Shown here piece after piece: positions 1 to 24,937 of a DNA stretch of 32,879 bases. Source of the stretch: Candidatus Fervidifonticultor quintus (lineage in GTDB: Bacteria > Sysuimicrobiota > Sysuimicrobiia > Sysuimicrobiales > Humicultoraceae). The translations under genes were made by a program, and so were the position numbers. The stretch's first letter is position 1. Every line of letters starts with the position of its first letter. Below the pieces are notes generated by a model, which was given only the letters and a program-made list of their open reading frames with translations, ran no database searches and was not told where the DNA came from. The stretch lies in assembly GCA_031459535.1 (NCBI GenBank), contig JAVKIJ010000034.1:1-32879 (forward strand), given 5' to 3'.

Positions 1-3000
1 CACGTTGTACGGGTAGGCCGGGTTGTACCTGGCCCGCACCATGCAGCGGGCCACGCGGTAGAAGGGATCGTTGGGCTTCCAGCCCAGATACGGACGGTCG
101 GCGGCGTAGGCGTCCACGTAGACGTAGTCACCGTCGTTGATGCCCAAATCCCGCGCGGCCTGTGGGTTGATGTGGAGCTGGTGCTCCCCCACGCCGGGAG
201 CCCGCTTGTCCAGCCGGTAGGGATCCGCGAAGTTGGAGTCCCAGATCAGGTTCCAGTCGGTGCTGCTCCACGAGGAGTGCACGCGGTGGCGCGTCTTGGG
301 CGTCAGGCAGTAGAACTGGTAGCCACGCTGCCACAGCGGGTTCTTCGTGGCCTTCACCTGCGCCCAGGGCAGCTTGACGTTGCGCACCGTGCGCTGGTCC
401 CAGTGCAGGGCATCCAGAGGGATCCCGTAGTCCTCGGGCCGGATCAACGGGTTGCTGCTCACGATCACGTTGGGTAGATATGGGGTCGCCTCTGGGCCTT
501 CCCGGTGGACGACGAAGTTCTCGCCGTACTCGATGGCCTCGGGGATGTCGCAGTAGGCGTTGAGCCGGCCGGTATCGGTGTAGAACGGCTCGCTGTCGTG
601 GATCTGTTCGTAGAACGGCACCCGGGGGTAGGTGCGGAACAACATCAGCGCCGCTCCGGGCTCACCGTACCGCCCTCCAACGATGTCCTCGAAGCGGTAC
701 CCCACGGTCGAGGTTGAACTGTCCAGGATGCGCTGGATGTACACCTCGGGCCGCCCGTCCAGGATGAACCGGTAGTAGTCGCGAAACCGGCGGTCGCCGG
801 TCTTCACCGAGAGCTTGGCCGCCACCTCGGCAATGATGCGGGCGTCGTCCCTGGTGTCGAAGAGCGGCTTGATCCCGCCCTTCCAGATCTGGAGGAAGGG
901 GTTGCTGCACGAGGCCGTCAGTTCCCAGTCTTCGAACTCCACCCACGTGTTGGCCGGAAGGATGACGTCGGAGTATTCGGCCGTGGCGGTCATCTCCACG
1001 TCCTGGTTGATGATCAGCTCGACCTTCGGCCCCACGTTCTTGATGACCCCATACGCCCATTTGGCGTTGTTGATGATGTTGACGTTGTTGAACCACATGA
1101 CCTTGGTCGGGGTCGGCATGTGGGTCTGCCCGGTGAACACCTTGCGGCCCCGCTTGGGCGTCTGGACGATGAGCGGAACGTCGCCATGATCCCAGTAGGC
1201 CGGCTCCTCGTCTTTCAGGTACTTCCTGACCTTCACGTCCTTGCCGGGCGTCCGGGGGTCGGGGGCCGGGGCAAAGGGGTCCTCAAAGAGCCACCCGGTG
1301 ATGCCTGGCCCGGTCCAGGGGGAACCCTGGAAGATACCTGCTTTGTAGTTGCCGGCCCAGGTGTGGCAGCCGGCGCCGGGCTTGCCGATGTTCCCGGTGA
1401 GCATCAGCGGCAGGTAGAAAGCCCGGTTCGCCAGCGTAGCATGGAACCAGTGATTGATCCCCTCGCCGATGTGGATGGCCACCGGCGTGATGGTGGCCAT
1501 ATCGCGGGCCAGGCGTCTGATCATCGCCTTGGGCACGTGGGTGATCGCCGCCACCGTGTCCAGGTCGTAGTCGCGCAGGTGGTCGCGGTAGGCCTCCCAC
1601 AACGTCAGGCATGGCACCTCGGTGCCATCCACGAGCCGCACGGTTCCCCGCCAGACCAGCGCCGGGTCGATGCCCCTGGCGGTCATCCGTCGGCCCACAT
1701 CGTCCCGGGTGACGGCCCGCAGCGCCCCAGTGGTCTTGTCGAAAACCACGAAGTCGCCCAGCCTGGCGTACTGGTCGGGCTTCAGGTTCTGGCGCGCGAA
1801 GCTCGGCCCGTCAGGTGCAAGGCCCGGCTTGTAGTTGGGGAACACCTCGGCCGCCCGCAGGCGCTTCAGCGTATCGGTCCGCACGATCAGCGGGAAGTCG
1901 GTGAACTGCCGCACGAACGCCGCGTCGTACCAGCCGCGTTCCATCATCAGACGGGTGATGCCCAGGAAGAGCGCGGCATCGGTCTGCGGCCGAATCGGCA
2001 TCCAGTAGTCGGCCTTGACGGCGGGGGGGCTGTATTCGGGCGTGATGACCACGATCTTGGCGCCCCGCTCCATCAACTCGTTGAAGAAGTGGCTCTCGGG
2101 CATCTTGTTCTCAATGAGGTTCTTGCCGACCTGGATGTGTAGCTTGGCATGCCGCAGTTCGTTGAAGTCCACGTCGGACGCCTGCAGGCCGTGGACGAAG
2201 GGCATACCCGGCGCCTGGTCACCGTGCCAGGTGTAGTTACTCCACTTGCGGGCGCCTAGCGCCTCCTCTGGCCCCACCCCGCGCACGTGGGCGTCCAGCA
2301 GCGCCATCATGTTGGCGGCGCGCCAGAGGCCGTACTTGCCGATGACACCCAACAGACCCATGCCGCCGCGGAACTTGAACGTGCGCACGCCAGCGCCGTG
2401 CACGGCGTCCACCATCTCGGGCGGATAGCCCTGGTCGAGCAGGCGGCGCGCGCCGTCGGGGCCGCTGTACCGCCGAGCGATAGCGATGAAGGCCGAGGCG
2501 ATGTACGAGTAGACCTCGTCCCAGGGGACCCGCACGAACGTGTCCTGGCCGCGGCTGTCGAACCGGTACTTCGTCCGCAACTCATCGGTCAGCTCGGGGT
2601 AGCCGTCGTCCGCCCACTGCTTCCATCCCCGACGGATCATGGGGTACTTCAGGCGGTACGGCCCGTAGACCCGGCGATGAAAGGTGTAGCCCTTGAGGCA
2701 CCCGCGCGGGTTCCAGGCCGGCGTCGCCCGGTTGCCGTACAGATCACCGTAGCGGGGCACGTCGTAGTTCTGCTCGATGCGCATGATCACGCCGTTGCGC
2801 ACAAACGCCCGCATCCGACAGTGGTGCGTGTCGTTGGGCGAGCACACGAACGTGAAGCTGCTGTCGTACCGGTACTGGTCCCGGTAGACCTTCTCCCATG
2901 CCCGATCGGGATAGGCCTCCAGCGGGTTCTCCACGACGGACAGCGGCCTGAGCAGGTTGAGCGGGAGGGTCTGGGAGAGCAGGGCGCCGCCGAAGAGGGC

Positions 3001-3108
3001 ACCAGAGAGTTCCAGGAACTCGCGGCGGCGGAGCGTCCGAGGGGCGCTCGGCCCGGCTGCGTTCGAGTCAGGCGCAGGCGATGCCGCTGCGCCGTCGCGC
3101 TCGTTCAT
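1..3108 (-). CDS. nxrA: Periplasmic (Tat-exported) nitrite oxidoreductase/nitrate reductase alpha subunit, anammox/Nitrospira NXR clade; 3' end truncated by window edge
   Basis: Hand-translated; not in the ORF track. ATG at 3108 with GGGAGGT RBS at 3114-3120, and the frame stays open to base 1 (1036 codons). Twin-arginine motif TLRRREFLE (RRR at 3022-3030). NPLEAYPDRAWEKVYRDQYRYD. FS0 motif CSPNDTHHC (2818-2844) plus NPRGCLKG (Cys 2698-2700). Mo-ligand Asp in SNYTWHGDQAPG (Asp 2218-2220). Also GKNLIENKMPE, GENFVVHREGPEATPYLPN and RYNPAYPYNV at the edge. Confidence 0.95.
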   Translation of the reverse strand, partial: MNERDGAAASPAPDSNAAGPSAPRTLRRREFLELSGALFGGALLSQTLPLNLLRPLSVVENPLEAYPDRAWEKVYRDQYRYDSSFTFVCSPNDTHHCRMRAFVRNGVIMRIEQNYDVPRYGDLYGNRATPAWNPRGCLKGYTFHRRVYGPYRLKYPMIRRGWKQWADDGYPELTDELRTKYRFDSRGQDTFVRVPWDEVYSYIASAFIAIARRYSGPDGARRLLDQGYPPEMVDAVHGAGVRTFKFRGGMGLLGVIGKYGLWRAANMMALLDAHVRGVGPEEALGARKWSNYTWHGDQAPGMPFVHGLQASDVDFNELRHAKLHIQVGKNLIENKMPESHFFNELMERGAKIVVITPEYSPPAVKADYWMPIRPQTDAALFLGITRLMMERGWYDAAFVRQFTDFPLIVRTDTLKRLRAAEVFPNYKPGLAPDGPSFARQNLKPDQYARLGDFVVFDKTTGALRAVTRDDVGRRMTARGIDPALVWRGTVRLVDGTEVPCLTLWEAYRDHLRDYDLDTVAAITHVPKAMIRRLARDMATITPVAIHIGEGINHWFHATLANRAFYLPLMLTGNIGKPGAGCHTWAGNYKAGIFQGSPWTGPGITGWLFEDPFAPAPDPRTPGKDVKVRKYLKDEEPAYWDHGDVPLIVQTPKRGRKVFTGQTHMPTPTKVMWFNNVNIINNAKWAYGVIKNVGPKVELIINQDVEMTATAEYSDVILPANTWVEFEDWELTASCSNPFLQIWKGGIKPLFDTRDDARIIAEVAAKLSVKTGDRRFRDYYRFILDGRPEVYIQRILDSSTSTVGYRFEDIVGGRYGEPGAALMLFRTYPRVPFYEQIHDSEPFYTDTGRLNAYCDIPEAIEYGENFVVHREGPEATPYLPNVIVSSNPLIRPEDYGIPLDALHWDQRTVRNVKLPWAQVKATKNPLWQRGYQFYCLTPKTRHRVHSSWSSTDWNLIWDSNFADPYRLDKRAPGVGEHQLHINPQAARDLGINDGDYVYVDAYAADRPYLGWKPNDPFYRVARCMVRARYNPAYPYNV

Positions 3109-3162
3109 GGGTGACCTCCCAAACCACGCCAGAGCCCGAGGCCGTGCCGCCTCAGCCGAAAT

Positions 3163-3180
3163 TCGGACTTTGTCGTCCGA
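3163..3180. promoter_or_regulatory. Inverted repeat TCGGAC-N6-GTCCGA upstream of nxrA; candidate regulator site
   Basis: Perfect 6-bp arms with a 6-nt spacer, about 55 bp upstream of the nxrA ATG, in the divergent intergenic region. Confidence 0.35.
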
Positions 3181-3382
3181 TTAGTCTGAGAGATTACCCG
3201 CACCATACAGGGCAACTACCCCAACCGACAATCCGGTCTCGACCTGATCTTCCACGACCGGTGCCGGCCCTCCACGCGCCCACCTCATGGAGAGGGGGAC
3301 CCTCGAGCTTGGCGCCGAAATGGATGTCGTCTCGAAGGAGTGTGTTCTGTTCGACGACGTGCAATCCGCAGGACGGTGGGAA

Positions 3383-3859
3383 ATGAGGCGCGCGCCCTGG
3401 TGGAGGGGCGAGCGGGGCGAGTGGTGGGTGATCGGCCAGGGCGTGCTGCTGCTCGCCATGGCCCTGGCGCCCGCAGCGTGGCCCTGCAGCACCGCGCCCC
3501 GAGTCATCTGGCAGACGCTGGGCGGCTCGTTGATTCTGGCCGGCCTTGGCGTGGCCGGACGCGGCGCGGTCGAGCTGGGGCCCAACCTAACGCCCCTGCC
3601 GGAACCGCGCCCCAGGGGGTTCCTGGTGCGAACCGGCCTCTACGCCCACACCCGCCACCCGATCTACGGCGGACTGATCATCGCGGGCGTGGGCTGGGCG
3701 CTGTGGAAGGGCAGCGGCTTGCACCTGGTGCTGGCCGTGGCGTTGGCGCTCTACATGAACGCCAAAGCCCGCTGCGAGGAGGGGCGGCTGCTGGCGCGCT
3801 TCCCGGAGTACGAGGACTACCGCCGCCGCACCAAGCGCCTAATCCCCGGGGTGTTCTAG
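3383..3859 (+). CDS. Isoprenylcysteine carboxyl methyltransferase (ICMT/PEMT)-family membrane protein
   Basis: Hydrophobic helices, LVRTGLYAHTRHPIYGG and EEGRLLARFPEYEDYRRRTKRLIP motifs. ATG 3383 is in frame with track ORF 3287..3859. Confidence 0.85.
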   Translation: MRRAPWWRGERGEWWVIGQGVLLLAMALAPAAWPCSTAPRVIWQTLGGSLILAGLGVAGRGAVELGPNLTPLPEPRPRGFLVRTGLYAHTRHPIYGGLIIAGVGWALWKGSGLHLVLAVALALYMNAKARCEEGRLLARFPEYEDYRRRTKRLIPGVF

Positions 3860-4552
3860 CGCGATCTCGAGTCGGCGGTTCGCCTTGCCCTTGTTCTCGG
3901 TCCGGGTGATCCGCAGGCGGCCGACCTCCCGGGTGTTGGCCACGTGGGTGCCGCCGTCGGCCTGAGCATCGTAGTTTTCGATCTCCACCACACGGATCTG
4001 GGGCAGGTCAGGGACGAGGTTTCTGGCCAGTCGCGTCAGATCCGAGCGCTCGAACTCCTCGCGCGTGACGAACCGGATCAGCACCCGGCGGCGGGAGCTC
4101 AGCACACGATTGGCCTCGTCCTCGATGGCGGCCACGCGCTCCTTGCTGAGATCCTCCAGCGCGAAGTCCATCCTGGCGCGGTCGGGATAGATGGCGCCCC
4201 CGGTCACCAGTGCGCTGAAGAGCTTGTAGACCGCGCCAACCAGCACGTGCAGCGCGGTGTGGTGTCGCATGACGCCGTAGCGGCGCTCCCAGTCCAGGCT
4301 GCCGTGGACCACCTGGCCCACCGGGGGGACCGGGCCATCGAGCACGTGCCAGAGGGTTGCCCCGTCGCGCTTCATCTCAGCGACGCGGCTCTCTGTGCCC
4401 GGCCAGGCCAGCCGGCCGGTATCGAACGGCAGGCCGCCGCCGCCAGGATAGAAGGCCGTGCGGTCGAGGGCGACAGCCTGCCCCTCTGCAGCCACCACCG
4501 TCGCGTCGAACTCGCGAAGGTAGCTGTCGCGCAGATACAGTGGCTCGGTCAC
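3839..4552 (-). CDS. alaX: Free-standing alanyl-tRNA editing protein (AlaX-M type)
   Basis: LYLRDSYLREFDATV, FYPGGGG, HTALH (HxxxH) and ADGGTHV (CxxxH-equivalent). GTG start with a GAGGAGGGG RBS. Confidence 0.9.
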   Translation of the reverse strand: MTEPLYLRDSYLREFDATVVAAEGQAVALDRTAFYPGGGGLPFDTGRLAWPGTESRVAEMKRDGATLWHVLDGPVPPVGQVVHGSLDWERRYGVMRHHTALHVLVGAVYKLFSALVTGGAIYPDRARMDFALEDLSKERVAAIEDEANRVLSSRRRVLIRFVTREEFERSDLTRLARNLVPDLPQIRVVEIENYDAQADGGTHVANTREVGRLRITRTENKGKANRRLEIALEHPGD

Positions 4553-4596
4553 GGCTCCCCCTCCTCGGTGCGTCCCCGTCTTGGACGCCCCCCTCC

Positions 4597-5442
4597 CTAT
4601 GCGCCTGGCGGCCGCAGCCGGGGATCGAGGGCATCCCGCAGCGCGTCACCCACCAGGTTGAATCCCAGCACCGTCAGCATGATGGCCAGACCGGGAAACG
4701 TGGCGATCCACCAGGCCTGCAGCATGAATTCGCGGCCGCCGGCTAGCATCCCGCCCCAGTCGGGCGTCGGCGGCTGCGCGCCCAGCCCGAGGAACGACAG
4801 CCCCGCCGACGATAGGATCGCCGTGCCCACGCCCAGCGTGGCCTGCACGATCACCGGTGCCGCGGCGTTGGGCAGCACGTGGCGGGCGATGATGCGGGGC
4901 ACCCGCACGCCCAGGGCGCGGGCGGCGTCCACGTACTCCTGCGCCCGCACGACCAGCGTGGCCCCCCGCACCACCCGGGCGAAGGCGGGGATGGCGACGA
5001 CGCCCACGGCGATGATGGAGTTGCGCACCCCCGGGCCCAGCGCGCCCACGATCGCCAGCGCCAGCAGGAGGGCCGGGAACGCCAGGAGCACGTCCATGAC
5101 CCGCATGACCAGCACGTCGACGCGGCCGCCGACGAACCCGCTCAACAGCCCCAGCGGCACACCCAACCCGGCTGCGATGGCCACGGCCAGGAATCCGACG
5201 ACCAGCGAGATCCGGCTGCCGTAGATGATCCGCGTGAACACGTCCCGGCCGAACTCGTCGGTGCCGAGCCAGTGCGCGGCGGATGGGCCGCGCAGCGCCT
5301 GCTCCCACACCTGCGCGTTGGGATCATACGGCGCTACCCACGGCGCCAGGGCGGCGGAGGCGGCCATCGCCAGCAGCACCAGCAGGCCCACGGCCGCAGG
5401 CCGGTGCCGCACGAGATGTCGCACCCGCTGGCGGCTAGTCAT
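4597..5442 (-). CDS. Peptide/nickel ABC transporter permease (DppC/OppC-like)
   Basis: HWLGTDEFGRD, EYVDAARALG (EAA loop), LSFLGLGAQPPTPDWG. True start is probably ATG 5442, overlapping the upstream permease stop. Confidence 0.92.
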   Translation of the reverse strand: MTSRQRVRHLVRHRPAAVGLLVLLAMAASAALAPWVAPYDPNAQVWEQALRGPSAAHWLGTDEFGRDVFTRIIYGSRISLVVGFLAVAIAAGLGVPLGLLSGFVGGRVDVLVMRVMDVLLAFPALLLALAIVGALGPGVRNSIIAVGVVAIPAFARVVRGATLVVRAQEYVDAARALGVRVPRIIARHVLPNAAAPVIVQATLGVGTAILSSAGLSFLGLGAQPPTPDWGGMLAGGREFMLQAWWIATFPGLAIMLTVLGFNLVGDALRDALDPRLRPPGA

Positions 5443-6364
5443 ACCGTACCCGCGGGTCCACCACCGCGTAGAGCAGATCGACGCCGAGGTTGATGAGCAC
5501 AAAGGCCGCGGCCGTGAAGAGGATGGTGCCCTGCACCAGGGAGATGTCCCGGCTGTAGATGGCGCTGACCGCCAGCCGCCCCAAGCCGGGCCAGGCAAAG
5601 ACGGTCTCGGTGAGCACGGCGCCGCCCAGCAGACCGCCCAGCTGCAGCCCGACCACGGTGATCACCGGGATCAGCGCGTTGCGCAGCGCATGGCGCACCA
5701 GCACATTCTTCTGGGCCAGGCCCTTTGCCTGCGCCGTGCGGATGAAGTCCTGCCCCAGCACCTCGAGCAGGCTACTACGGGTCATGCGGGCGATGAGTGC
5801 CGAGGACGCCAACCCCAGCGTGACCGACGGCAGCACGAGGTGCTTCCAGCTCCCGAACCCCGAGGCCGGTAGCCATCCCAGCGCCAGGGCGAAGACCAGC
5901 ATCAGCAGCAGGCCCAGCCAGAACACAGGCAGGGACACGCCGAACAGCGCCAGCAGCATGGCCGCGTGATCCAGGGGGCTGCCACGATAGGCCGCGGAGA
6001 GCACGCCGGCGGGCAGGCCAATCGCCAGCGCGACGGCGAGGCTCGCCGCGGTCAGCACCAGGGTGAACGGGGCCCTGGCCAGCACCTCGTCCCACACCGG
6101 GGCGCCAGTGCGCAGTGATCGCCCCAGGTCGCCCCGGACCGCCCGCCAGACGAACCGGCCGTACTGGACCACGAGCGGATCGTCCAGGCCCAGGCTGCGG
6201 CGCAGGCGCGCTACCTCTTCCTGCGAAGCGCCCTGGCCCAGCTCGCCGAGCAGCACCCGGGCCGGGTCACCCGGGGTGAGGTGCAGCGTGATGAACGCCA
6301 CCAGCGTCACGCCCAGCAGCACCGGGGCCAGGAGCGTGAGGCGCTGGACCAGGAAGCGGGCCAT
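5435..6364 (-). CDS. Peptide/nickel ABC transporter permease (DppB/OppB-like)
   Basis: PGDPA, GDLGRS, DFIRTAQAKGL, ETVFAWPGLG, DPRVRYD. Confidence 0.93.
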   Translation of the reverse strand: MARFLVQRLTLLAPVLLGVTLVAFITLHLTPGDPARVLLGELGQGASQEEVARLRRSLGLDDPLVVQYGRFVWRAVRGDLGRSLRTGAPVWDEVLARAPFTLVLTAASLAVALAIGLPAGVLSAAYRGSPLDHAAMLLALFGVSLPVFWLGLLLMLVFALALGWLPASGFGSWKHLVLPSVTLGLASSALIARMTRSSLLEVLGQDFIRTAQAKGLAQKNVLVRHALRNALIPVITVVGLQLGGLLGGAVLTETVFAWPGLGRLAVSAIYSRDISLVQGTILFTAAAFVLINLGVDLLYAVVDPRVRYD

Positions 6365-6396
6365 TCGTCAGCCGGCGGTCATCGACGAACCCAGCG

Positions 6397-7914
6397 TTAG
6401 CGTCGCAGTGTCGCCTTCCGGAGTTCCAGGTTGATCCACGAGAACGGTGACGTGGTGCCCTTCAGCTCGCTGCGCACGGCATAGGTCGACAGCGGGTAGT
6501 ACAGAAAGATCATGGGCGCGTCGCGCACGATCAGCGTCTGCGCCCGGCGGTAGATGCGCTCGCGCTGGTTCTGGTCGGCGGTCGCGCGGCCTTCCTCGAG
6601 CAGCCGGTCCACCTCTGGGTTCTTGTAGCGCGAGTAGTTCGGGTTCGGGATCTGTGAGGAGTGGAAGAGCGAGTACAGGGTATAGTCGGCATCCAGCGTC
6701 ACGGTGCCCCACCGCATGCCGTAGAGGTCGAAGTCCCCGCGCTCCAGTCGCGACAGCCAGGTGCCGAACTCGACCACGTCCACCTCGACCTGGATGCCGA
6801 CGGGTTGCAGGCTGGCCTGGATCGCCTGCGCGATCCGGCGCCACTCGGCACTCTCGAAGACCACCAGACGCGCCCGGCTGCCGGGCCGGACGCCGGCCTC
6901 GGCGAGCAACGCCTTGGCGCGATCCAGATCGTACTCGTACCCCGAAAGATCCGGATTCGCGCCGAAAACCACCGGCGCCAGCGGCCCGTTGGCCGGCAGC
7001 GCCAGGTCCTTGAGGAAGAAGCTGATCAGGCCTGCCACGCGCACCGCGTGGCCCACCGCGCGCCGGGCGCGCACGTCGTTGAACGGCGGCCGCTCCAGGT
7101 GGAAGCCGATGTAGTTGGCGCTGAAGCTGGGTTCCTTGTACACGGTCACCCGCGGGTTGCGCTCCAGCCGCGGCACCGCGTCGGCCGGCATGTTGAAGAC
7201 CACGTCAACGCCGCCCGACTCCAGCTCGACGATCTGGGTCGAAGCCTCGGGGATCGGACGCATGACCACCCGAGCGATCTGCGGCGCGCCACCCCAGTAC
7301 TCATCGTTGCGCACCAGCGTGATCCGGTCGCGGGCTATCCACGACTCGAACTTGAACGGCCCGGTGCCCACCGGGTTGCGGGCGAAGTCCGCGCCAAACC
7401 GCTGCACGGCCGCCGGACTGACAATGGAAGTCGCCGGGTGGGTCAGGTGATTCAAGAGCGCCGCAAACGGAAAGCGGGTGGTGATCTGAACCGTGTCATC
7501 GGCGATCACACGCACGCTCTCCACCATGCTGAGCACGAAGAAGGCGCGCGCCCTGGACTGCGGGTTGACGAATCGCTCCAGGGTGAATCGCACGGCCTCG
7601 GCGCCAAACGGTGTCCCGTCGTGGAACTTCACGCCGCGGCGCAGTTTGAACTCCCATGTGCGATCACCCGCCGGCCTTCAGGACACGGCCAACCGTGGCT
7701 CCAGCCCCCTGGCCGAGCGAACCAGCAACGTCTCGTAGATCTGATTGATCACCAGGAACGACGGACCGTCGTTCGTCCGATGCGGATCCAGCGCCGTGGC
7801 GTCCGCCGGCATGGCGACCACGATGCCTTCGCCAGCCGCCGGCGCCCCCAATCCCACCCCACCGCCAAGCAGCAGCAACAGCATCACAACCAGCACTCGC
7901 CGCAACATCGTCAC
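6397..7914 (-). pseudogene. Family-5 ABC solute-binding protein interrupted by one in-frame TGA (7678-7680)
   Basis: Track ORFs 7678..7914 and 6397..7632 are in the same frame: signal peptide-LDPH...IYETLL...LAVS-[TGA]-RPAGDRTWEFKLRRGVKFHDGTPF. The stop occupies the conserved Trp of the SBP_bac_5 LAxSW motif. Confidence 0.85.
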
Positions 7915-8013
7915 ACCTCTCTCGCCGATGGTAGGAGCCTCGCGCAGTACGGCTCGTCTTCCTCACCTTAGGATATGCGACTCCACACGTCTACCGCCCC
8001 GCCGCGGGCGCCG

Positions 8014-9529
8014 CTAGCGTCCCGTCAGCGTCGGGAGCGGCGCATCCTCGGCCAATCGGCACGAGGCGCCGCTGCAGCGCTTCAGGGCGGCCAGGCGGGC
8101 TGACAGTGGTCCGAGGACACCGATCTCGGTGGCGTGGATGCTCTCCATCTGGTAAGGATCCCGTGCCAGGTCGTACAACTCACGCTCCCCGGTCGCATAC
8201 TCCACGTAGACCAGATCTCTGCCTCGCACACCGTGGAACTCCGGGATGCCCCGCCCTCCCGGCGATCGCTCCGGCGCGGCCTGAGGCAGGCCGTCGGGCT
8301 GCTCGCGGTAGTGCTCGATGGCAATGGCCTGCCGCCATGCCTCCGGCGCTGGCGGGGCGGCGCCCAGCAGCGGCACCAGCGACCGGCCGTCGACCCTCTC
8401 CGGAATCGGTACGCCGGCAATCTGTGCGAACGTCGGCGCCAGATCGTTGTTGCAGGCCAACAGGGCTAGGGTCCGTCCCTCGGGGACGGCCAGCCCGCGC
8501 ACCACGTGCGGCACGCGAATTGACTCTTCATAGGGCGTATTCTTGCCGGCGGCGATCCGATGCTCGCCCAGGTGCCAGCCGTTGTCCGACGTGAAGAAGA
8601 TGTACGTGCGAGACAACTGCCCGGTGGCCGCCAGCACGTCCACCAGCGCCGCGATCATCTCGTCGACGGCCAGCAACGACTGCAGGCGAACCCGGAAGTG
8701 CTCGTCGATGTCAGAGGTCTGCCGCGGGCTCAGGGGAGCCCGGCTGCGTAGCCACGCCGGCTTGTCGCTGGTGTCGGCCTCATTGAATGCCGGAGAGCGG
8801 GGCGCTGCCACGCCGCTGAAGGCATCCTCGTGACGCGGCGCGGGTGTCGCGGGCGCGTGGGGCGCGTACGTCGACAGGTGGACGAAGAACGGCCGGCCAG
8901 CGGCTGCCGCCTGCCGGATGAACGCAATGGCCTTGCGGGCGAGCAGGTCGGTCATGGAGTCCTCGGGCGCTCGCCCATAGGGCACGATCCGGCCGTTTTC
9001 GTTCATGCGAAAGTTGAAGTTGGCGTAGGGAGTGCCGCCGGCGGGACTGTTCCATTCGTCCCAGCCCGGCGGCACATGGGTCTGTTGCCCGCGCAGCGGA
9101 TAACCGTTCAGGTACTTCCCAAGAAACGCGGTACGGTATCCGGCGGCCTGCAGCCATGTTCCGACCGTGGAGCGCTCGTGGCCCTGCTCCAGGAACCGCG
9201 GATACCCCCCGTTGGGCCGGGTGTTGGTCAGCACCCGGTGGTTGTGCACGTACTGCCCGGTCAGGATCGTAGACCTGGACGGACAGCACAACGCGTACGT
9301 CACGAAGAACTGGGTGAACGTCACACCGCGCTCGATCAGCAAGCTCCCGAGAAGAGGCATGTAAGCCACGGAGCGGGTATCGAGGTCGTCGGTAAGTATG
9401 AAGACGATGTTGGGCCTCGCCGGGAGGGGTGCAGGCGCCGCGGCGCTCCAGACGGCCGGCTGCGCGAGCATCGCCAGCGTGACCCGAAACTACCATGGTG
9501 ACCGGGATGGGGTTGGGACGACGGTTCAT
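8014..9529 (-). CDS. Secreted formylglycine-type sulfatase (N-acetylglucosamine-6-sulfatase-like); probable 1-nt frameshift in the signal peptide
   Basis: PNIVFILTDD, CCPSRSTILTG (CxPxR), GKYLN, FTSDNGWHLGEH, GKNTPYEESIRVP, ELYDLARDPYQ. The main frame 8014..9471 is intact; the upstream ATG 9529 is offset by one base. Confidence 0.88.
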
Positions 9530-9717
9530 CGAAGTGCGTCAGCGTAGCATGTCGTAGAATACGCTTCTGCTCCGACCATGTGCGCCAGCACGTCACGGAT
9601 GGATTTCATCCCCGCCTGGGGCGGCGTGGTCAGTTGCCCCCAGGCGTGCGGCCGGCAGAGATCGGTGATCTCCCGCGGCACGTTGCCGAACGCTTCCAGA
9701 ATCCGCTGCGGAACCAT
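9526..9717 (-). pseudogene. Truncated DinB/YfiT-like protein (63 aa)
   Basis: SIRDVLAHMVGAEAY matches the first His helix of DinB proteins, but the ORF stops about 10 aa later and lacks the C-terminal HxxxH. TGATG coupling to the DUF167 gene. Confidence 0.55.
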
Positions 9718-9947
9718 CAGGATGCGCCCCCTGTGATCTCCAGGATCTTGTGCCGCCCGGTCTGCCCGTGCACGATGCGCACCCGGGACGGCGGCACCTT
9801 TAGATAGTCTGCCACGGCTCGCGCCACCGCCCGGTTGGCCTGTCCTCCGTGCGGCGGCGAGGTCACGGCCACCCGCAGGGTCGCAGGGTCCAGGCGCTCC
9901 ACGCGGGTGCGGGCGGCGCGGGGGGTCACGATGACCGCGAGGCGCAT
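9717..9947 (-). CDS. DUF167/YggU (UPF0235) family protein
   Basis: VTPRA, VTSPPHGGQAN, IVHGQTGRHK motifs; 76 aa. Confidence 0.88.
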   Translation of the reverse strand: MRLAVIVTPRAARTRVERLDPATLRVAVTSPPHGGQANRAVARAVADYLKVPPSRVRIVHGQTGRHKILEITGGAS

Positions 9948-9959
9948 GGGGTCGCCATC

Positions 9960-9990
9960 TTGACAGCCGGCGGGCGCGCTACAATATATA
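9960..9990 (+). promoter_or_regulatory. Putative sigma70-type promoter for the SPW-repeat gene
   Basis: Consensus TTGACA at 9960-9965 followed by AT-rich TACAATATATA at 9980-9990. Spacing is non-optimal (14 nt to TACAAT, 19 nt to TATATA). Confidence 0.4.
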
Positions 9991-10044
9991 CGGCACCATA
10001 CTGGCGACGGCGGAGGACGTTAGACCTCATGGAGGTGAGCTCGC

Positions 10045-10395
10045 ATGGTATGGGCCAATGTGATCAACGCCCTGATCGGAATCTGGTTCATCATTGCGCC
10101 GTTTGCGCTGGCATTTCAAGAGCTTCGCGGCGCCATGTGGACCAGCATCATCGGCGGCCTCATTCTGCTGATCCTCGCAGGCTGGGCCGTCTTCAATGAG
10201 GGCGCACGCAAGCAGAAGTGGGTTCAGTACGTCAACGGCCTCGTCGGCATCTGGTTCGTGCTCTTCCCGTTCATCTTCACGCTATCCACCAATGCGGCAG
10301 TCATGTGGACCAGCATCATCGGGGGGGCCGTCGCGCTCATCCTGAGCGCCTGGCTGGCGTTCAGCGTCCTGGCGAAGGAGGCCCCTGCCCGCTGA
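10045..10395 (+). CDS. SPW-repeat integral membrane protein
   Basis: Two homologous halves (NALIGIWFIIAPF..MWTSIIGG and NGLVGIWFVLFPF..MWTSIIGG); GGAGGT RBS. Confidence 0.8.
   Translation: MVWANVINALIGIWFIIAPFALAFQELRGAMWTSIIGGLILLILAGWAVFNEGARKQKWVQYVNGLVGIWFVLFPFIFTLSTNAAVMWTSIIGGAVALILSAWLAFSVLAKEAPAR
10134..10322 (+). repeat. 21-bp direct repeat CATGTGGACCAGCATCATCGG (10134-10154 and 10302-10322)
   Basis: Exact repeat with a 168-bp period, reflecting the internal duplication of the SPW protein. Confidence 0.8.
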
Positions 10396-10417
10396 TTTGC
10401 TCCCTCCGCCGTCGCGT

Positions 10418-10451
10418 GCCGGCGCCGCCCTCGTGGCGGCGTCGGCGTTTT
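10418..10451 (+). terminator. Probable intrinsic terminator after the SPW gene
   Basis: GCCGGCGCCGCC-ctcgt-GGCGGCGTCGGC stem (one G-U pair) followed by GTTTT. Confidence 0.6.
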
Positions 10452-10454
10452 CGA

Positions 10455-10463
10455 TGGTATACT
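10455..10463 (+). promoter_or_regulatory. Extended -10 promoter element TGGTATACT
   Basis: TGn-TATACT directly after the terminator and about 37 nt before an RBS-equipped GTG at 10500. Confidence 0.5.
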
Positions 10464-10499
10464 AGGGGCCATCTGCACGTCCGGGAGGGAAGCACCCAG

Positions 10500-10679
10500 G
10501 TGGGGGCGCTGGCCGTTTCGGTGGTCGCCGTGGCTGGTATCGGATTCATCGTCACGCTGACGCAACTCAGTCTGCGCCTCTTCGGTGTGCCCGAAGAGCA
10601 CGAGTTAATTGCGGGAATCTTCATGGCGGTCGCCTACGGGCTCTTCTCCGTCCCGGCCCTATTGCTACTCGCCCGGTAG
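10500..10679 (+). CDS. Small two-helix membrane protein (59 aa), unknown function
   Basis: GTG 10500 preceded by GGGAGGGG. MGALAVSVVAVAGIGFIVTLTQLSLRLFGVPEEHELIAGIFMAVAYGLFSVPALLLLAR has two hydrophobic segments. Confidence 0.55.
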   Translation: MGALAVSVVAVAGIGFIVTLTQLSLRLFGVPEEHELIAGIFMAVAYGLFSVPALLLLAR

Positions 10680-11618
10680 GCCCGGCGGGGCCAAGGCAGC
10701 GACCTCTTCGACTTCGGCGGGCGTCAGTTCCCACGCCGTGGCCTTCGCGTTGGCCTCGACCTGCTCCGGCCTGGTCGCCCCGGCAATGACCGTGCACACC
10801 ATGGGACGCGCCAGCAGCCAGGCGATGGCCAGCTCGGCCACGCTGTGGCCCCGGGCCCGCGCCCAGCCGTCGAGGGCCTCCACCAGGGTCAGGTTGCGCC
10901 GGGTCAAGAACCGGCGCTGGAACTGCTCGCTCCCATATCCCCGCGTTCCGACCGGCGCCGGTTCGCCCTGACGGTACTTCCCGGTGAGAACGCCAGCGGC
11001 CAGCGGGTAGTAGGGGATGACGCCGACCCCGAACGCCTGGCAGGCCGGAATCAGTTCCCGTTCGATCTCGCGAACCAGCAGGCTGTACTCTGGTTGCACC
11101 GTCACGAAGCGCGACCACCCGCGCCGTTCGCTGAGCCACAGCGACCACACCAGCTGCCAGGCAGCGAAGTTCGAACAACCGATATAGCGCACCTTCCCCT
11201 GCCGAACCAGATCGTCCAGCGCGCCCAGGCTCTCCTCCAGCGGCGTCTCCTGATCCCACCGGTGAATCTGCAGCAGATCAACATAGTCCATCTGCAGCCG
11301 CCGCAGGCTGGCCTCTATGCCCGCGACGAGCCGCGCGCGGGAGACGCCGGCCTGGTTGGGGCCGTCGCCCAACGCCCAGCCGACCTTTGTGGCGACCACG
11401 GCACGGTCGCGGCGCCCGGTGAGTGCCTTGCCCAGGAATTCCTCTGACCGGCCACCGCCGTAGACGTCGGCAGTGTCGAAGAAGGTCATCCCCAGGTCCA
11501 GGGCCGCATGGACGATGCGGGCCGCGCCGTCGGCGTCCACGAACCGGCCGAATGTGTTGCAACCCAGCCCCAGCACGCTGACCTGGAGCCCGGCACTTCC
11601 CAGCCGGCGGTACTTCAT
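10665..11618 (-). CDS. Aldo/keto reductase
   Basis: [62 protein letters not shown]. Confidence 0.95.
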   Translation of the reverse strand: MKYRRLGSAGLQVSVLGLGCNTFGRFVDADGAARIVHAALDLGMTFFDTADVYGGGRSEEFLGKALTGRRDRAVVATKVGWALGDGPNQAGVSRARLVAGIEASLRRLQMDYVDLLQIHRWDQETPLEESLGALDDLVRQGKVRYIGCSNFAAWQLVWSLWLSERRGWSRFVTVQPEYSLLVREIERELIPACQAFGVGVIPYYPLAAGVLTGKYRQGEPAPVGTRGYGSEQFQRRFLTRRNLTLVEALDGWARARGHSVAELAIAWLLARPMVCTVIAGATRPEQVEANAKATAWELTPAEVEEVAALAPPGLPGE

Positions 11619-11864
11619 ACTGCCTCCTTCTCCAGCGTAACGTCACCCGCGCACGAGCGGACCGAGCGGCTCTTCCGGTGACTTGGACCCGAGTGTAGAG
11701 ATGTCCTGCGAAGCGCGGCGTGGATCGCGCGTGACCAGCTGGCGGCGCACCGACTACGGCCGAACGCAAATGTTCATGGGGTCAGCACGCCAGCACGGCG
11801 ATGACCACAGCGTAATGGGCACCACCGAGAGGGGTCAAGCGACCGCCCCGCCAACTTAGCACCC

Positions 11865-12476
11865 ATGGAGTCTCTGAAGCGTCGCATCCTCGCCGAAGGC
11901 AAGAACCTGGGAGGCGGCATTCTGAAGGTGGACGCCTTCATCAACCACCAGGTCGACCCTGTGCTGATGCAGGAGTGCGGGCAGGAGCTGGCGCGGCGCT
12001 TCCGTCACGCCGGTGCCACCAAGGTGCTCACCGCCGAGATCTCCGGCATCGCGCCAGCGCTGTGCGCCGCGTTGGACTTGGGCATCCCCATCATCTACGC
12101 CCGCAAGCAGCGTCCGGTGACGATGCCCGATCAGATCTACCTGACCATCGCACCGTCGCACACCAAGGCCGGACGCGTGGAGCTGATGGTGTCGCCCGAG
12201 TTCCTCCACCAGCACGACCGTATCCTCATCATCGATGACTTCCTGGCTACCGGTGAGACCATCCTAGGCCTGGCCCGGCTGGCACAGGCTGCAGGTGCCA
12301 CGGTGGTCGGCGTTGGGGTGGTAATCGAAAAGACATTCGAGGGCGGGCGCGCCGCGGTCCAGCGGCTGGGCGTCCCCGTCGAAGCCCTGGCCCGCATCAG
12401 CGATATGAGCGACGGGAAGATCGTGCTGGAGGACGCGCCGGGACCACCGGGGTTGGGCTTGCCCGGACCGACATGA
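11865..12476 (+). CDS. xpt: Xanthine phosphoribosyltransferase
   Basis: ILKVDAFINHQVDP, TAEISGIAP, YARK and PRPP-binding LIIDDFLATG; VIEKTF. Confidence 0.9.
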   Translation: MESLKRRILAEGKNLGGGILKVDAFINHQVDPVLMQECGQELARRFRHAGATKVLTAEISGIAPALCAALDLGIPIIYARKQRPVTMPDQIYLTIAPSHTKAGRVELMVSPEFLHQHDRILIIDDFLATGETILGLARLAQAAGATVVGVGVVIEKTFEGGRAAVQRLGVPVEALARISDMSDGKIVLEDAPGPPGLGLPGPT

Positions 12477-12497: not shown

Positions 12498-13470
12498 GTG
12501 GAGACGCGTGCAGCGGTGCTGTACGAGATGGGGCGCCCCACCCCGTATGCGGCGTCACGCCCCCTGGTCGTGCAGGACGTGACCCTGGCGCCGCGGGGCC
12601 CGGGCGACACCGATCATTCTGGGCCACGAGGCGAGCGGGGTGGTGCGGAAGACCGGGCCGGGCGTGACCGGCTTGGCCCCTGGTGACCCCGTAGTGTTCT
12701 CGTTCGTGCCGGGCTGCGGCCGCTGCGTGCCATGTGCCACTGGCCGGCCGGCGCTGTGCGAGCGCGGCGTTGCAGCCAACGCGGCGGCGATGCTGCTGTC
12801 AGGGGCCCGCCGCTTTCACGACGGCTCCGGTGCCGTCATCAGCCATTTCCTGGGCATCTCTGCCTTCGCTCGCCACACGGTCGCGGCGGCGGAGTCGCTG
12901 ATCCCGATCGACCGCGGATTCCTTCTTGACACCGCTGCCCTCTTCGGCTGTACCGTGCTCACCGGTGTCGGTGCGGTGGTTAACACGGCCCGCGTGGAAT
13001 CGGGAACCAGCGTCGCGGTCTTCGGTCTGGGCGGCGTGGGGCTGAGCGCCGTCATGGGCGCACGGCTCTCGTCGGCGCTCATCCGCTCGTGGCCGTAGAC
13101 GTGCTCGACGCCAAGCTGGAGGTAGCCCGCGCGCTCGGGGCGACCCACAGCGTCAACTCCCGCACGACCGACCCGGTCGAGGCGATTCGGGAGCTCACCG
13201 GCGGAGGAGCGCACTACGCCCTCGAGAGTGTTGGCAGCGAGCAGGCCCTGGTGGCGGCCTACCAGGCCACCCGCCGCGGGGGCACCACGGTGAGCATGGG
13301 TTTGACGGACCGTCAAGGGGTCGTTCATGGGCTCGGCCGTGCCCCGGCGCGACATCCCAGGTTCATGGCGCTCTATCAGGCGGGTCTGTTGCCCGTCGAT
13401 CGGCTCGTGACCCGATTCCTGACCCTCGACGAGATCAACGCGGGATTCGACGCGCTGGCCGGGCCGCGCG
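12498..13470 (+). pseudogene. Zn-dependent alcohol dehydrogenase (class III-like MDR) pseudogene
   Basis: Fragments in different frames: METRAAVLYE..., ILGHEASG..CGRCVPC..LC, FGLGGVGLS, VAVDVLDAKL, RTVKGSFMGS, DEINAGFDALA. Lesions near 12608, 13068, 13305 and 13357; no proper stop codon. Confidence 0.88.
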
Positions 13471-22402: not shown

Positions 22403-23692
22403 TCAGTGGGAACGTCGGAGACCCCTTGCCTCCAGACGTTGCGGAAATCGGTCAAGCCGCCACGGCGCCAGCGGCACTGAGGGAGTCCGGCCCTCTGCCA
22501 AGTCGGCGACGAGCTTCCCTGTGATCGGCGCCTGCGTGATGCCCAGCATGGCATGCCCCGTGGCTACGATCAGCCCGTCGGCGCCGACCCGGTCGATGAT
22601 CGGCAGGCCGTCCGGCGCCACCGGCCGGAACCCGCACCATGGCTCTTCGTGCTGCATCGGCGGCGGTTGCCGCAACACCTCCCGTGCCGCGCGCACCACC
22701 GCCTGGTAGCGCACGGAGTCAATGGTGGGGTCGAATCCCGCCAGCTCCAGCGTCCCACCGAACCGCACGCGGCCGTCCAGTGGGGTGATGATGACCCGCC
22801 GCTCCTGGATCAGGATCGGCACAGTGGGCATCTCTTCAAAGGCGTCAATCGTGCAACTGTACCCCTTGGCAGGCTGCAAGGGAATCTGCACCCCCAGCGG
22901 CGCCGCGATAGCCGGCGTCCATGAGCCGGCGGCGATCACTACCACGTCCGCAGCGATCGCCTCGCGGCCCGAGCGCGACTCGACGTCTACCGCTTCGACT
23001 CGTCGCCGCCCCACGCGAATCCTTCGCACGGTCGCGTGCTCCAGCAGCCTTGCCCCCCGCCGCCGGCATGCCGCGGCCATGGCGCGCACAAACCCCAGAC
23101 TCTCGGTGTGCGCCTCACCCGCGATGAACAGGCCGCCGCGCACACCGTCGCCCAGGACCGGCTGGAATTCGCGCACCTCCCGCGCATCGAAGAGGGTCGT
23201 CCGGAACCCGGCCGCCTCAAGGGCTTCCCGCTCGCCCCGCGCGCCGGCGGTCCCCTCGTCGGTGACGTAGACATGCAGCAGGCCTGCCCTCCGAAAGAAG
23301 AACTCCAGGTCCGGCGTGCGCGCCAGGTCCTCATACAGCGCGAGACTGGCCCGGCTCAGTGCCAGCAGCGCGTCGAACCCCCGGTGCGACGCCTCCGGCG
23401 TGCAATACCGCCTGAACTGCCAGGCCCACCGGAGCAGATCTCGATCCAGCCGGGGTCTGATGTAGAAGGGGCTGTCCCGGCGCACCATCCACCGCAAGGC
23501 GCGGCCGACGACGCCGGGCCCAGGCAACGGATGCGAGTGGCTCGGCACGATGAGACAGGCGTTGCCGTAGGAGCAGCCGTGGCCGATCTCCCCGCGATCA
23601 ACCAGGGTGACGTCCCAGCCGGCCAGGCTCAGGAAGTACGCGGAACACACCCCGATCGCGCCCCCGCCGATCACTACCGCCTGTCCAGGCAT
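22403..23692 (-). CDS. dadA: FAD-dependent D-amino acid dehydrogenase-like oxidoreductase
   Basis: VIGGGAIG, CSYGNA, AAGSWT, PAKGYS, FGGTLE, WCGFRP..PDGLPII, ATGHAMLG. Start is ATG 23692 or GTG 23695. Confidence 0.85.
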   Translation of the reverse strand: MPGQAVVIGGGAIGVCSAYFLSLAGWDVTLVDRGEIGHGCSYGNACLIVPSHSHPLPGPGVVGRALRWMVRRDSPFYIRPRLDRDLLRWAWQFRRYCTPEASHRGFDALLALSRASLALYEDLARTPDLEFFFRRAGLLHVYVTDEGTAGARGEREALEAAGFRTTLFDAREVREFQPVLGDGVRGGLFIAGEAHTESLGFVRAMAAACRRRGARLLEHATVRRIRVGRRRVEAVDVESRSGREAIAADVVVIAAGSWTPAIAAPLGVQIPLQPAKGYSCTIDAFEEMPTVPILIQERRVIITPLDGRVRFGGTLELAGFDPTIDSVRYQAVVRAAREVLRQPPPMQHEEPWCGFRPVAPDGLPIIDRVGADGLIVATGHAMLGITQAPITGKLVADLAEGRTPSVPLAPWRLDRFPQRLEARGLRRSH

Positions 23693-23723
23693 CACTCCTC
23701 CTGACGACCGTCCCGACGGCGTC

Positions 23724-24701
23724 CTAGTGGAGCGGATAGAAGGTGTATCGGAACAGGACCGACACCACCAGCATGACCAGCGCTACCGCACCCATCACAG
23801 CCGTCACCTCGGTCGGGCGCCTCTCCCACCCGATGGTTCGAGCCAGCTCGCGGTAGATCTCGCGCAGGCGCCCAGCGGCCGACGCATGAAAATACCGCCC
23901 GCCGGTCTCGACCGCAATCGCCCGCAGCGTAGGCTCATCTAGCACACCGTAGTATCCGCTGCGAAACGCCGCCGGATCGTTGGTTGTGCCCACGCCCACA
24001 GTGTAGACCCGCACGCCTCTCGCCCTCGCCTCCACCGCTGCCTGGAGGGGCGGGACGCCGTCACTGGCGCGGCCGTCGGAGAGCAGGACAGCCACGGCCC
24101 GCGGCCGGCCGGACCCTGCCTGACCCGGGACAGGCGATGACGAGCCCGCGGCAGGTGGCCCGTTGCCTTCGTCCAGCACTGCCCGCACCCCCTCGAGCAG
24201 CCCTGTCCCGAGCTGCGTCCGGAGTTGCGTCGCCAACCCGAGGATGCCCTGCCGGATCCTGGCTCGATCGTCGGTGAGCGGGACGACCACGGTGGCATAG
24301 TTGCCGAAACTCACGACCGCCACTCTCGTCGTGCGCGGCAGCCCGTCGATGAAGTCCAACGCTGCGGCCTTTGTGGCCAGGATCCGGCTGGGTGGAATGT
24401 CGTTCTCTTCCATGCTACGACTGACGTCAATAATGAGGACGACCGGATAGCCCGTTGGGTTCGGCCAGGGCACCATGGGGCGCGCAGTCCCCACGATGAT
24501 GGTGGCCAGCGAGAGCCAGAAGAGCCCGGCAGGCAGGTGACGGCGCAGACGGCACGCCCAGACCGCCGCGTCGGCCACCAGCCAGAGCGGGAAAATGGCC
24601 ACTCCGCCAGTCGGGCGACGGCGGGTCAGAGCCGCATACCAAAGGATGAGGGCGCCGAGTGCCGGCAACAGCCAGAGGATCGCAGGATACGTCCAGGCCA
24701 T
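23724..24701 (-). CDS. Membrane-anchored vWA domain protein (BatA-like)
   Basis: N-terminal TM helices, MIDAS DVSRS, LLSDG, VYTVGVG, DEPTLRAIAVETGGRYF, C-terminal TM helix. Confidence 0.88.
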   Translation of the reverse strand: MAWTYPAILWLLPALGALILWYAALTRRRPTGGVAIFPLWLVADAAVWACRLRRHLPAGLFWLSLATIIVGTARPMVPWPNPTGYPVVLIIDVSRSMEENDIPPSRILATKAAALDFIDGLPRTTRVAVVSFGNYATVVVPLTDDRARIRQGILGLATQLRTQLGTGLLEGVRAVLDEGNGPPAAGSSSPVPGQAGSGRPRAVAVLLSDGRASDGVPPLQAAVEARARGVRVYTVGVGTTNDPAAFRSGYYGVLDEPTLRAIAVETGGRYFHASAAGRLREIYRELARTIGWERRPTEVTAVMGAVALVMLVVSVLFRYTFYPLH

Positions 24702-24937
24702 GACGCCTCGTCTGGACCGATCCCAACGGCCAGGTCACGCGGGGACCGGTTAGCCACCAGTATAGCGACTCCGAAGCGTTGGCGGGATGGAGCAGCTATT
24801 CGAACAGCGGTCTCAGGTTGAGGGCGAAGCCTTCCGAGATAGGATCAAAGGACACGGCCTCTGCAGCGTTCGATGACCTCTGGTGCCTTAGCCCTACCGA
24901 GAGGCGGCCCGCCCGCCGATGCTATGCCTGGCGAAAC

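Follow-up and report, generated by a model that had tools for sequence, protein, structure and literature searches.

What does a gene for the catalytic subunit of a nitrite oxidoreductase (NXR) do in Candidatus Fervidifonticultor quintus, and in which direction does its enzyme work? The gene, nxrA, lies at the start of the 32,879-nucleotide stretch of contig JAVKIJ010000034.1 analysed here (the window). An earlier note, based on the sequence alone, had described an uninterrupted frame of 1036 codons with a twin-arginine (Tat) motif, an Asp-type FS0 motif and WHGD. All of these were found on the minus strand, where the frame runs from position 3108 to 1 with an ATG start, zero stops and an open end at the contig edge; the plus-strand reading of the same stretch is interrupted by stops. 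The description of the gene as invisible to the ORF track was also accurate, for the trivial reason that the frame has no stop at the contig edge: an ORF listing with open ends includes nxrA, whereas a listing without them omits it. The features of the gene and its upstream region are as follows.

1..309, no strand: region that overlaps the terminus of contig C72 (99.0% identity; 3 silent differences, at window positions 25, 151 and 226)
1..3108, minus strand: nxrA, first 1036 codons of the catalytic Mo-bisPGD alpha subunit (frame, structure match and synteny)
2218..2229, minus strand: WHGD, residues 294-297; D297 corresponds to the Mo ligand Asp275 of Kuenenia NxrA (motif and alignment)
2698..2700, minus strand: fourth FS0 cysteine, C137 (motif and alignment)
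2818..2844, minus strand: FS0 motif C89-x3-D93-x3-C97; N92 corresponds to Kuenenia Asn70 (motif and alignment)
3013..3030, minus strand: twin-arginine motif RRREFL, residues 27-32, behind an extended n-region (motif; the genome encodes tatC)
3115..3120, minus strand: ribosome-binding site GGGAGG (sequence)
3161..3182, no strand: second palindrome, 22 bp, which lies 74 nt ahead of the ATG and recurs in locus L015
3202..3207, minus strand: putative -10 element TATGGT, 22 nt past the operator (sequence)
3230..3249, no strand: predicted 20-bp palindromic operator, consensus AATCGGGT-N4-ACCCGATT, common to about 39 other intergenic sites

The best structure match of the nxrA product is NxrA of Kuenenia stuttgartiensis (7b04_B, 1582 bits), followed by PcrA at 206 bits. 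The alignment to 7b04_B has an offset of 22; thus, C89, N92, D93 and D297 are equivalent to Cys67, Asn70, Asp71 and Asp275, the key residues of Kuenenia NXR (PMC8387239). The FS0 stretch reads CSPNDTHHC (residues 89-97), and the residue set of periplasmic NXR, namely a 3Cys/1Asp FS0, a Mo-ligating Asp and an active-site Asn, is present. Export is predicted from the Tat motif and the genomic tatC, and no clear AxA cleavage site was found in the present copy. The term 'periplasmic' is used here for outward-facing, because a BamA-like gene scores below the cut-off.

Leftward extension of the contig, as the earlier note had proposed, led to nxrB, a soluble nxrC and a TorD gene on C72. The join rests on the 309-bp overlap and on synteny in loci L014, L015 and L016, and the total length of NxrA is 1171 aa if both pieces are one gene. 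The genes on C72 are, in order:

27305-28021: remainder of nxrA
26999-27301: orf100
25753-27006: nxrB
24986-25738: TorD/NarJ-like chaperone gene
24042-24989: orf315
23167-24045: nxrC, soluble, heme-b

The operon order is therefore A-orf100-B-D-orf315-C, with two conserved unknowns, orf100 and orf315; orf100 matched no Pfam or NCBIfam family and only unnamed clusters in the Atlas. The best structure for both NxrB (E 2e-181) and NxrC (E 1e-53) is 7b04, and NxrC retains the Met155/Lys305 equivalents. The cluster on C72 thus holds nxrB together with a heme-b nxrC, as expected of a periplasmic NXR, and nxrA is the alpha subunit gene of a soluble NxrABC-type nitrite/nitrate oxidoreductase. Neither a quinol dehydrogenase gene nor a cytochrome c gene was found within the operon. 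A cydA-like/cytochrome c pair 2.5 kb past nxrC was considered as a membrane partner and rejected for its mismatched distribution: 13 of 41 genomes carry the pair, with 6 full-length copies in genomes without either NXR type; of the 8 genomes with the present enzyme, 4 gave no match, and the pair is absent from all other nxr loci. In L014, L015 and L016 the operon is bordered by cupredoxin genes, and in relatives G012 and G004 nxrA is followed, after about 9 kb, by nosZ.

The position of nxrA at a contig break, in an assembly with 5.24% contamination, could mean that the contig was misbinned and comes from a nitrifier or anammox bacterium, or that the gene is broken. Both ideas are largely refuted and deserve almost no credence, as orthologues 88-91% identical occur in the same gene order in Ca. 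Fervidifonticultor records, GC3 of nxrA is 0.90 vs a genome median of 0.87, the nxrA promoter has the host's own operator, and the 3' end is intact on C72.

A quick IQ-TREE phylogeny (60 rows; 10 redundant rows removed beforehand) placed NxrA within a 50-row clade with Brocadia and Nitrospira rows (SH-aLRT 100), as the earlier note had expected of a periplasmic NXR, and within a 44-row anammox-type subclade (SH-aLRT 96). It stands apart from NarG, from chlorate-reductase-like/perchlorate reductase rows and from a sister clade. NxrA is 64-65% identical to anammox proteins vs 55% for Nitrospira. The three motifs named in the note (RGGMGLLGVIGKYG, WHGDQAPG and GKNLIENKMPE) are all identical in Brocadia, whereas Nitrospira-labelled proteins have RAGMP..., WHGDQDPSQ or WHGDQNPSH, and GKNFVENKMPE; RGGMGLLGVIGKYG and WHGDQAPG are likewise shared by the two Nitrospinota-labelled rows examined. 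The preference for anammox over Nitrospira therefore held, but anammox bacteria are not the nearest kin: the closest proteins outside the host family are from Chloroflexota, Methylomirabilota, Binatia and Acidobacteriota (69-70% identity).

Kuenenia NXR-ABC (PDB 7B04; PMC8387239) shares the FS0, Asn and Mo-Asp equivalents, the Tat motif, NxrB, and a soluble, EBDH-gamma-like NxrC with Met/Lys ligands. Brocadia clusters likewise carry TorD and orf315 homologues, although their order is C-B-D-orf-A and orf100 was found in none of 18 Brocadiaceae-labelled loci. The periplasmic NXR of Nitrospira is of the same FS0 and WHGD type and forms a sister group in one 100%-supported clade; it differs in its lower identity and in the three diagnostic motifs, and RuBisCO was not found in the present host. 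NXR-like cassettes of non-nitrifying Armatimonadota, Chloroflexota, Methylomirabilota and Acidobacteriota (PMC9306079; PMC7814187) have the same six-gene set at 65-70% identity, but the host operator reaches a score of at least 14 in just 1 of 70 such loci. The direction of these enzymes has explicitly been called unknown (PMC9306079). Cytoplasmic NarGHI of E. coli and haloarchaeal NarG share the type II DMSO-reductase fold and the Asp ligand, but they are only 24-27% identical, have a His-type FS0 (H-x3-C-x3-C) and fall outside the clade. A cytoplasmic NarGHI identity is ruled out by the Tat motif, the Asp-type FS0 and the tree position, with narK not found. Membership of the type II DMSO-reductase family and a chlorite-dismutase-family gene in the genome would allow chlorate, perchlorate or selenate as the physiological substrate. 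This is very improbable, given the low PcrA score, the nesting within the NXR clade away from chlorate-reductase-like and NarG rows, and the dismutase-family gene lying on a different contig and belonging to a family with matches in 7 of 14 control genomes.

A periplasmic-clade NxrA in Humicultoraceae has already been published: Liu et al. (2024; PMC11604079) placed NxrA/NarG near periplasmic NXR in Humicultoraceae and Kaftiobacteriaceae (Sysuimicrobiota), so that the nxrA find itself is ordinary. NxrA of two Ca. Fervidifonticultor records, with hosts in the same family, is 91% and 88% identical to the present NxrA, and the gene order is the same. The accessible part of the article leans to nitrite oxidation and holds no description of the operon, a soluble NxrC or the operator.

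The host belongs to Sysuimicrobiota, Humicultoraceae, based on a single marker, RpoB (92% and 90% identity to Ca. Fervidifonticultor genomes, 56-58% to two Armatimonadota), and on the presence of CODH/ACS, which the accessible part of PMC11604079 limits to Humicultoraceae. The genome is 88.85% complete, and gene absences are thus weak evidence. The earlier note had inferred high GC, many importers and a host neither anammox nor a canonical nitrifier, all of which agree with the data: GC is 68.7%, and an SBP5 peptide-binding protein of the window, TctA and TctC have 58, 7 and 6 matches in the genome. Its term 'heterotroph-like' is incomplete, as a Wood-Ljungdahl cluster (CODH/ACS/FTHFS/MTHFR) is present. 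Also encoded are NrfA with CxxCK, NrfH, NosZ, an aa3 heme-copper oxidase whose subunit II has a CuA-type motif, two NiFe hydrogenase loci, two Rieske-like/cytochrome b clusters, NarL-type regulators on C104 and C119, and one clear CRP-family gene at C47:16911-17579 without a link to the operator. Searches for nirK, narK, RuBisCO and hzsA gave nothing over the cut-off in this genome; a weak nirK match (83.5 bits vs a cut-off of 296) was not counted. No HAO-sized octaheme protein was found among its 28 CxxCH proteins, and an anammox identity was rejected on this, on hzsA and on membership of Sysuimicrobiota, not Planctomycetota. Of the traits of canonical nitrite oxidisers, aa3 is present and RuBisCO was not found, the fixation route found being Wood-Ljungdahl. 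The AMO search, which matched no control genome, was uninformative.

Within the genus, two of six genomes have the present enzyme, two the sister-clade enzyme and two neither; nxrA is single-copy and patchily distributed. All 8 genomes with the present enzyme have a heme-copper oxidase, while nrfA or nirK was found in five and nosZ in five. The best three DNA runs all belong to a single study, possibly the source, and carry the label hot springs metagenome. One metatranscriptome run with 35% of words was unusable as proof of transcription, because its contigs cover every one of the 30 bins in window positions 1-12000, including the spacers, making transcription indistinguishable from DNA carry-over.

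The region upstream of nxrA offers further evidence. The operator there reads ATCGG-N8-CCGAT, 122 nt upstream of the gene; the 39 other sites were counted after removal of 11 high-scoring repeated words near contig ends. Across 41 genomes it has 167 occurrences vs 7 for the control. Of 48 site-gene pairs, 19 have a TAnnnT that starts 20-22 nt past the site; no other offset reaches more than 2. Since the putative -10 element begins 22 nt past the operator, the operator centre would lie near -44 relative to a predicted start site near position 3195, a probable activator position. The operator also precedes the nos cluster, the CODH/ACS cluster, PFOR, an NfnAB-like pair, hypC-region (hydrogenase-maturation) genes, class I fumarase, hemerythrin, moaA, mobA, cstA, sdh/frd, and sugar, peptide and TRAP binding proteins. 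It is absent from both short spacers of the aa3 operon and from the region upstream of nrfA (best score 3.7). In relatives, it was found at 4 of 4 loci of the sister-clade nitrate/nitrite enzyme, none used in training. Strict sites number 1-13 in 35 of 37 genomes with a heme-copper oxidase, and 0, 0, 0 and 1 in the four of 41 without, three of which are one genus. The consensus sites of CRP (TGTGA-N6-TCACA), FNR (TTGAT-N4-ATCAA) and Rex (TTGTGAA-N4-TTCACAA) do not fit, and their canonical intergenic sites number just 6, 2 and 2. A literature search for the operator, a weak test, returned nothing relevant.

This distribution suggests that the operator may link nxrA to anaerobic modules. There is little to recommend a stronger version, an order-wide, undescribed oxygen or redox activator co-inducing NXR with NosZ and Wood-Ljungdahl, in its boldest form with anoxic nitrite oxidation passing electrons through cupredoxins to N2O reductase. 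Such a coupling (nitrite + N2O to nitrate + N2) would be strongly exergonic by standard redox potentials; nxr and nos both carry the operator, and in two relatives some 9 kb separates them, the interval holding cupredoxin genes in the loci named above. Both enzymes face outward, however, so direct transfer would move no net charge. Further, the search for nosZ gave no match in 3 of the 8 enzyme-bearing genomes, many genomes without the enzyme do have nosZ, and the linkage has a simpler explanation in two terminal reductases on a single chain fed by quinol. A limited literature search found no paper on this coupling, which we regard as highly unlikely.

Sequence does not fix the in vivo direction of NXR, and the Kuenenia enzyme works both ways in vitro (PMC8387239). 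Of the three options left by the earlier note (nitrite oxidiser, mixotroph or outward-facing nitrate reductase), the last fits the evidence best: the nxrA product is probably a nitrate reductase of this kind, induced at low oxygen. In a facultative anaerobe, a global activator would switch the enzyme on at low oxygen, and NxrAB would be exported by Tat after TorD-assisted maturation. H2, CO or organics would reduce quinone to quinol, from which electrons may reach the Met/Lys heme b of NxrC by way of a Rieske/cytochrome b complex followed by a cupredoxin or a c-type cytochrome, the carriers being present and their wiring putative. The Fe-S wire of NxrB would then lead to the Mo-bisPGD of NxrA, with its Asp ligand and 3Cys/1Asp FS0. 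Nitrite could be reduced by NrfAH (nitrate ammonification), N2O being respired separately by NosZ, and an outward-facing enzyme would need no nitrate transporter. Against this reading, nrfA lacks the operator, the operon lacks a quinol dehydrogenase, and nrfA or nirK was found in just five of the eight genomes. With cstA, binding proteins and sdh/frd in the regulon, a carbon-starvation signal fits as well as anoxia.

The latter genes also suit a mixotroph in which NxrC passes electrons through cupredoxin or cytochrome c to aa3, so that auxiliary aerobic or microaerobic nitrite oxidation, or operation in both directions, supplies maintenance energy when carbon is scarce. An oxidative route exists, since all eight genomes have a heme-copper oxidase and the host's subunit II is of the CuA type. 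NxrA shares its clade with proven nitrite oxidisers, the high-potential Met/Lys heme ligands are retained, and cupredoxin genes adjoin the operon in the three syntenic loci. Such oxidation is proposed in the accessible part of PMC11604079 and, from the presence of nxrAB alone, for an Armatimonadota genome (PMC7814187). It nevertheless seems a less probable, if plausible, role: the operator is common to O2-sensitive enzymes and absent from the aa3 spacers, and nxrA is single-copy and patchy. In addition, no fixation route other than the O2-sensitive Wood-Ljungdahl pathway was found.

The useful addition of this analysis is a promoter site that may tie nxrA to anaerobic modules. Reduction of nitrate by an outward-facing enzyme predicts that nxrA rises together with nosZ and CODH/ACS under anoxia. 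Nitrogen-cycle surveys often score NXR-like genes of non-nitrifiers as nitrite oxidation, their direction being unknown (PMC9306079). If the prediction is true, these hot-spring bacteria would be nitrate consumers, not new nitrifiers.

A single minus-strand open frame of 1036 codons occupies bases 1-3108 of the window; it starts at an ATG that has a GGGAGG site and reaches the edge of the contig. The earlier note on this DNA called the frame invisible to the ORF track; ordinary ORF lists do leave it out, but solely for want of a stop codon within the window, and it is listed when open ends are allowed. All of the motifs named in that note, including the Tat motif, are present. The predicted NxrA matched Kuenenia NxrA (chain 7b04_B) with 1582 bits, compared with 206 for perchlorate reductase and 137 for E. 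coli NarG; use of another oxyanion as substrate is considered highly improbable. C89, N92, D93 and D297 align with Cys67, Asn70, Asp71 and Asp275 of 7b04_B, given in the available text of PMC8387239 as FS0 and molybdenum-site residues. The gene is genuine and intact, and its product belongs to an enzyme clade that is already known.

A tree of 60 rows (10 redundant rows removed beforehand; quick search, SH-aLRT support only) placed this enzyme in a nine-row group of close relatives (support 100) within a 44-row anammox-type clade (96), of which the Nitrospira group is the sister (joint support 100). With Fervidifonticultor the enzyme shares 88-91% identity; the figure drops to 69-70% for rows from Anaerolineae, Binatia, Methylomirabilota and Acidobacteriota, to 64-65% for Brocadia and to 55% for Nitrospira-labelled rows. 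The proposed placement in the periplasmic NXR clade, nearer to anammox bacteria than to Nitrospira, is thus upheld by clade support and identity alike. The novelty claimed for a host carrying such an enzyme falls away, because prior literature already covers these genes: the clade is known, and such NxrA has been reported in Humicultoraceae (PMC11604079). In the portions available, PMC9306079 describes nxr-like genes of unknown direction in heterotrophic genomes, PMC7814187 names an Armatimonadota nitrite oxidiser from the presence of nxrAB, the main text of PMC11962464 contains no occurrence of nxr or narG, and bioRxiv 2022.03.11.484050 does not link nxr to CSP1-3. In six loci of Armatimonadota and Rokubacteria (L029, L031, L034, L035, L080 and L089), the FS0 Asp is replaced by Cys (CSPNCT), giving a 4Cys cluster.

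The end of C72, another contig of the host genome, is 99.0% identical to window bases 1-309, with three differences, all silent. Its gene order is the last 135 nxrA codons, a 100-aa ORF, nxrB, a TorD/NarJ-like chaperone gene, a 315-aa ORF and nxrC, so that all three genes expected leftward of nxrA lie on C72. The two ORFs in its nxr locus (L001) are:

L001:17000-17302 (C72): orf100, 100-aa ORF beside nxrA, no family, conserved
L001:14043-14990 (C72): orf315, 315-aa ORF, no family, conserved, C-terminal cysteine motifs

The join across the contig break, although not read through, is well supported, since three other nxr loci (L014, L015 and L016) show the same order uninterrupted. NxrB and NxrC best match chains A and C, respectively, of the Kuenenia structure 7B04; NxrC is soluble and EBDH-gamma-like and retains the Met and Lys heme ligands. 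A homologue of orf100 occurs in 49 of 67 other, non-anammox loci, many misses being truncated loci, and in none of 18 Brocadiaceae-labelled and four sister-clade loci searched; orf315 has homologues in Brocadia (anammox) nxr clusters (29%). Genes converging on the operon end (L001:9335-13164) are a cydA-like one encoding a C-terminal cytochrome c domain and those for a 375-aa membrane partner, MarR and a protoglobin.

Alignment of upstream DNA revealed a 20-bp palindrome, ATCGG-N8-CCGAT (window 3230-3249), shared by the window and loci of four relatives. When only those four relatives' sites were used to build a matrix, 20 of 1465 upstream regions scored at least 14 bits, whereas shuffles gave 1.4; the nxrA site scored 21.6 with a matrix refined without it. 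The refined matrix gave 51 intergenic sites of at least 15 bits (1-4 in five Markov controls), or 39 without repeated words, a count partly circular owing to refinement. The strict pattern occurred at 167 sites, against seven for the reversed control, and in 36 of 41 genomes; genomes lacking a heme-copper oxidase hold 0-1 strict sites each, these kin not being independent. TAnnnT begins 20-22 nt 3' of the site in 19 of 48 site-gene pairs, a spacing that would suit an activator bound near -44. The sequence differs from the canonical boxes of CRP, FNR and Rex, and this identity was rejected. A second strong copy (window 13398-13417, 18.7 bits) has no assigned called gene start. The cydA-like gene also carries the operator, yet the occurrence of that gene does not follow nxr.

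Among 11 close-relative loci (three duplicates), the operator precedes nxrA or an upstream regulator gene in all except L009, whose nxrA was matched as two pieces (G017:C9:19237-22363), possibly through a frameshift; one genome, G016, seems to hold two nxrA copies. Of 70 loci in other phyla, only one reaches a score of at least 14. The palindromic operator is order-wide and activator-like in position. It is the sole part of the nxrA findings for which weak literature searches returned no earlier description.

Host-type NxrA was found in eight of 41 genomes (host included) and an intact sister-clade enzyme, 44-46% identical to it, in five; in the host's genus, two genomes hold the former, two the latter and two neither. 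Four relatives' loci (L010-L013, two in the host's genus) bear the sister-clade enzyme (WHTDL) in place of the host type, all four under the same operator, which suggests replacement of one type by the other. The sister clade groups with Natronococcus and is presumably the Nitrotoga/Hydrogenobacter clade. The clade so named in PMC6050957 contains, in the text available, a characterised nitrate reductase as well as a nitrite oxidiser.

The host's RpoB is 92% and 90% identical to those of two named Ca. Fervidifonticultor records (Humicultoraceae, Sysuimicrobiota in NCBI), 84% to a third and 56-58% to two Armatimonadota genomes. Its genome (3.1 Mb, 68.7% GC, 88.85% complete, 5.24% contaminated) carries genes for a CODH/ACS cluster together with FTHFS and MTHFR, and for NrfAH, NosZ, an aa3-type oxidase, two Rieske-like/cytochrome b clusters and two NiFe hydrogenase loci; at this completeness RuBisCO and hzsA were not found, and nirK and narK gave no match over the cut-off. 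The heterotroph-like character proposed earlier describes the host only in part: it has many importers, but is a facultative anaerobe and not a plain heterotroph. Window 3839-32865 holds catabolic and uptake genes unrelated to nxr (an AlaX-like editing protein, two peptide ABC clusters, a sulfatase, aldo-keto reductases, xanthine phosphoribosyltransferase, an ABC-F ATPase, D-amino acid dehydrogenase, amidohydrolases and a presumably TTT-like transporter). Contigs C104 (L094) and C57 (L095:2-2355) carry a dense multiheme cytochrome block (10, 7, 5 and 4 CxxCH) with two cytochrome b/Rieske-like modules, two NarL-type two-component pairs and a cytochrome b-ferredoxin fusion adjoining an MvhD-like gene; should these contigs be adjacent, the block lies beside the Wood-Ljungdahl cluster. 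An identical 20-nt word near the ends of C4, C23, C37, C47, C48, C64, C69, C90, C100 and C102 probably stems from a repeated mobile element at which the assembly broke.

Among the operator's targets are the nos cluster, CODH/ACS, PFOR, an NfnAB-like pair, hypC-region genes, fumarase, sdh/frd, hemerythrin, moaA and mobA. Nitrite oxidation coupled to N2O is judged very unlikely. Further targets are cstA and several solute-binding proteins, and the regulon could respond to carbon starvation rather than anoxia. The operator occurs neither upstream of nrfA nor in the aa3 spacers. That nrfA lies outside the regulon, that a nitrite reductase was found in only five of the eight carriers of host-type NxrA, and that all eight have an oxidase count against nitrate respiration, as does the possible starvation response; auxiliary or bidirectional nitrite oxidation remains a doubtful alternative. 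On balance, the enzyme rather likely serves nitrate respiration. NxrAB would be exported via Tat and induced at low oxygen, quinol would supply electrons to NXR by way of Rieske/cytochrome b and a soluble carrier, and the nitrite formed from nitrate would be removed by NrfAH.
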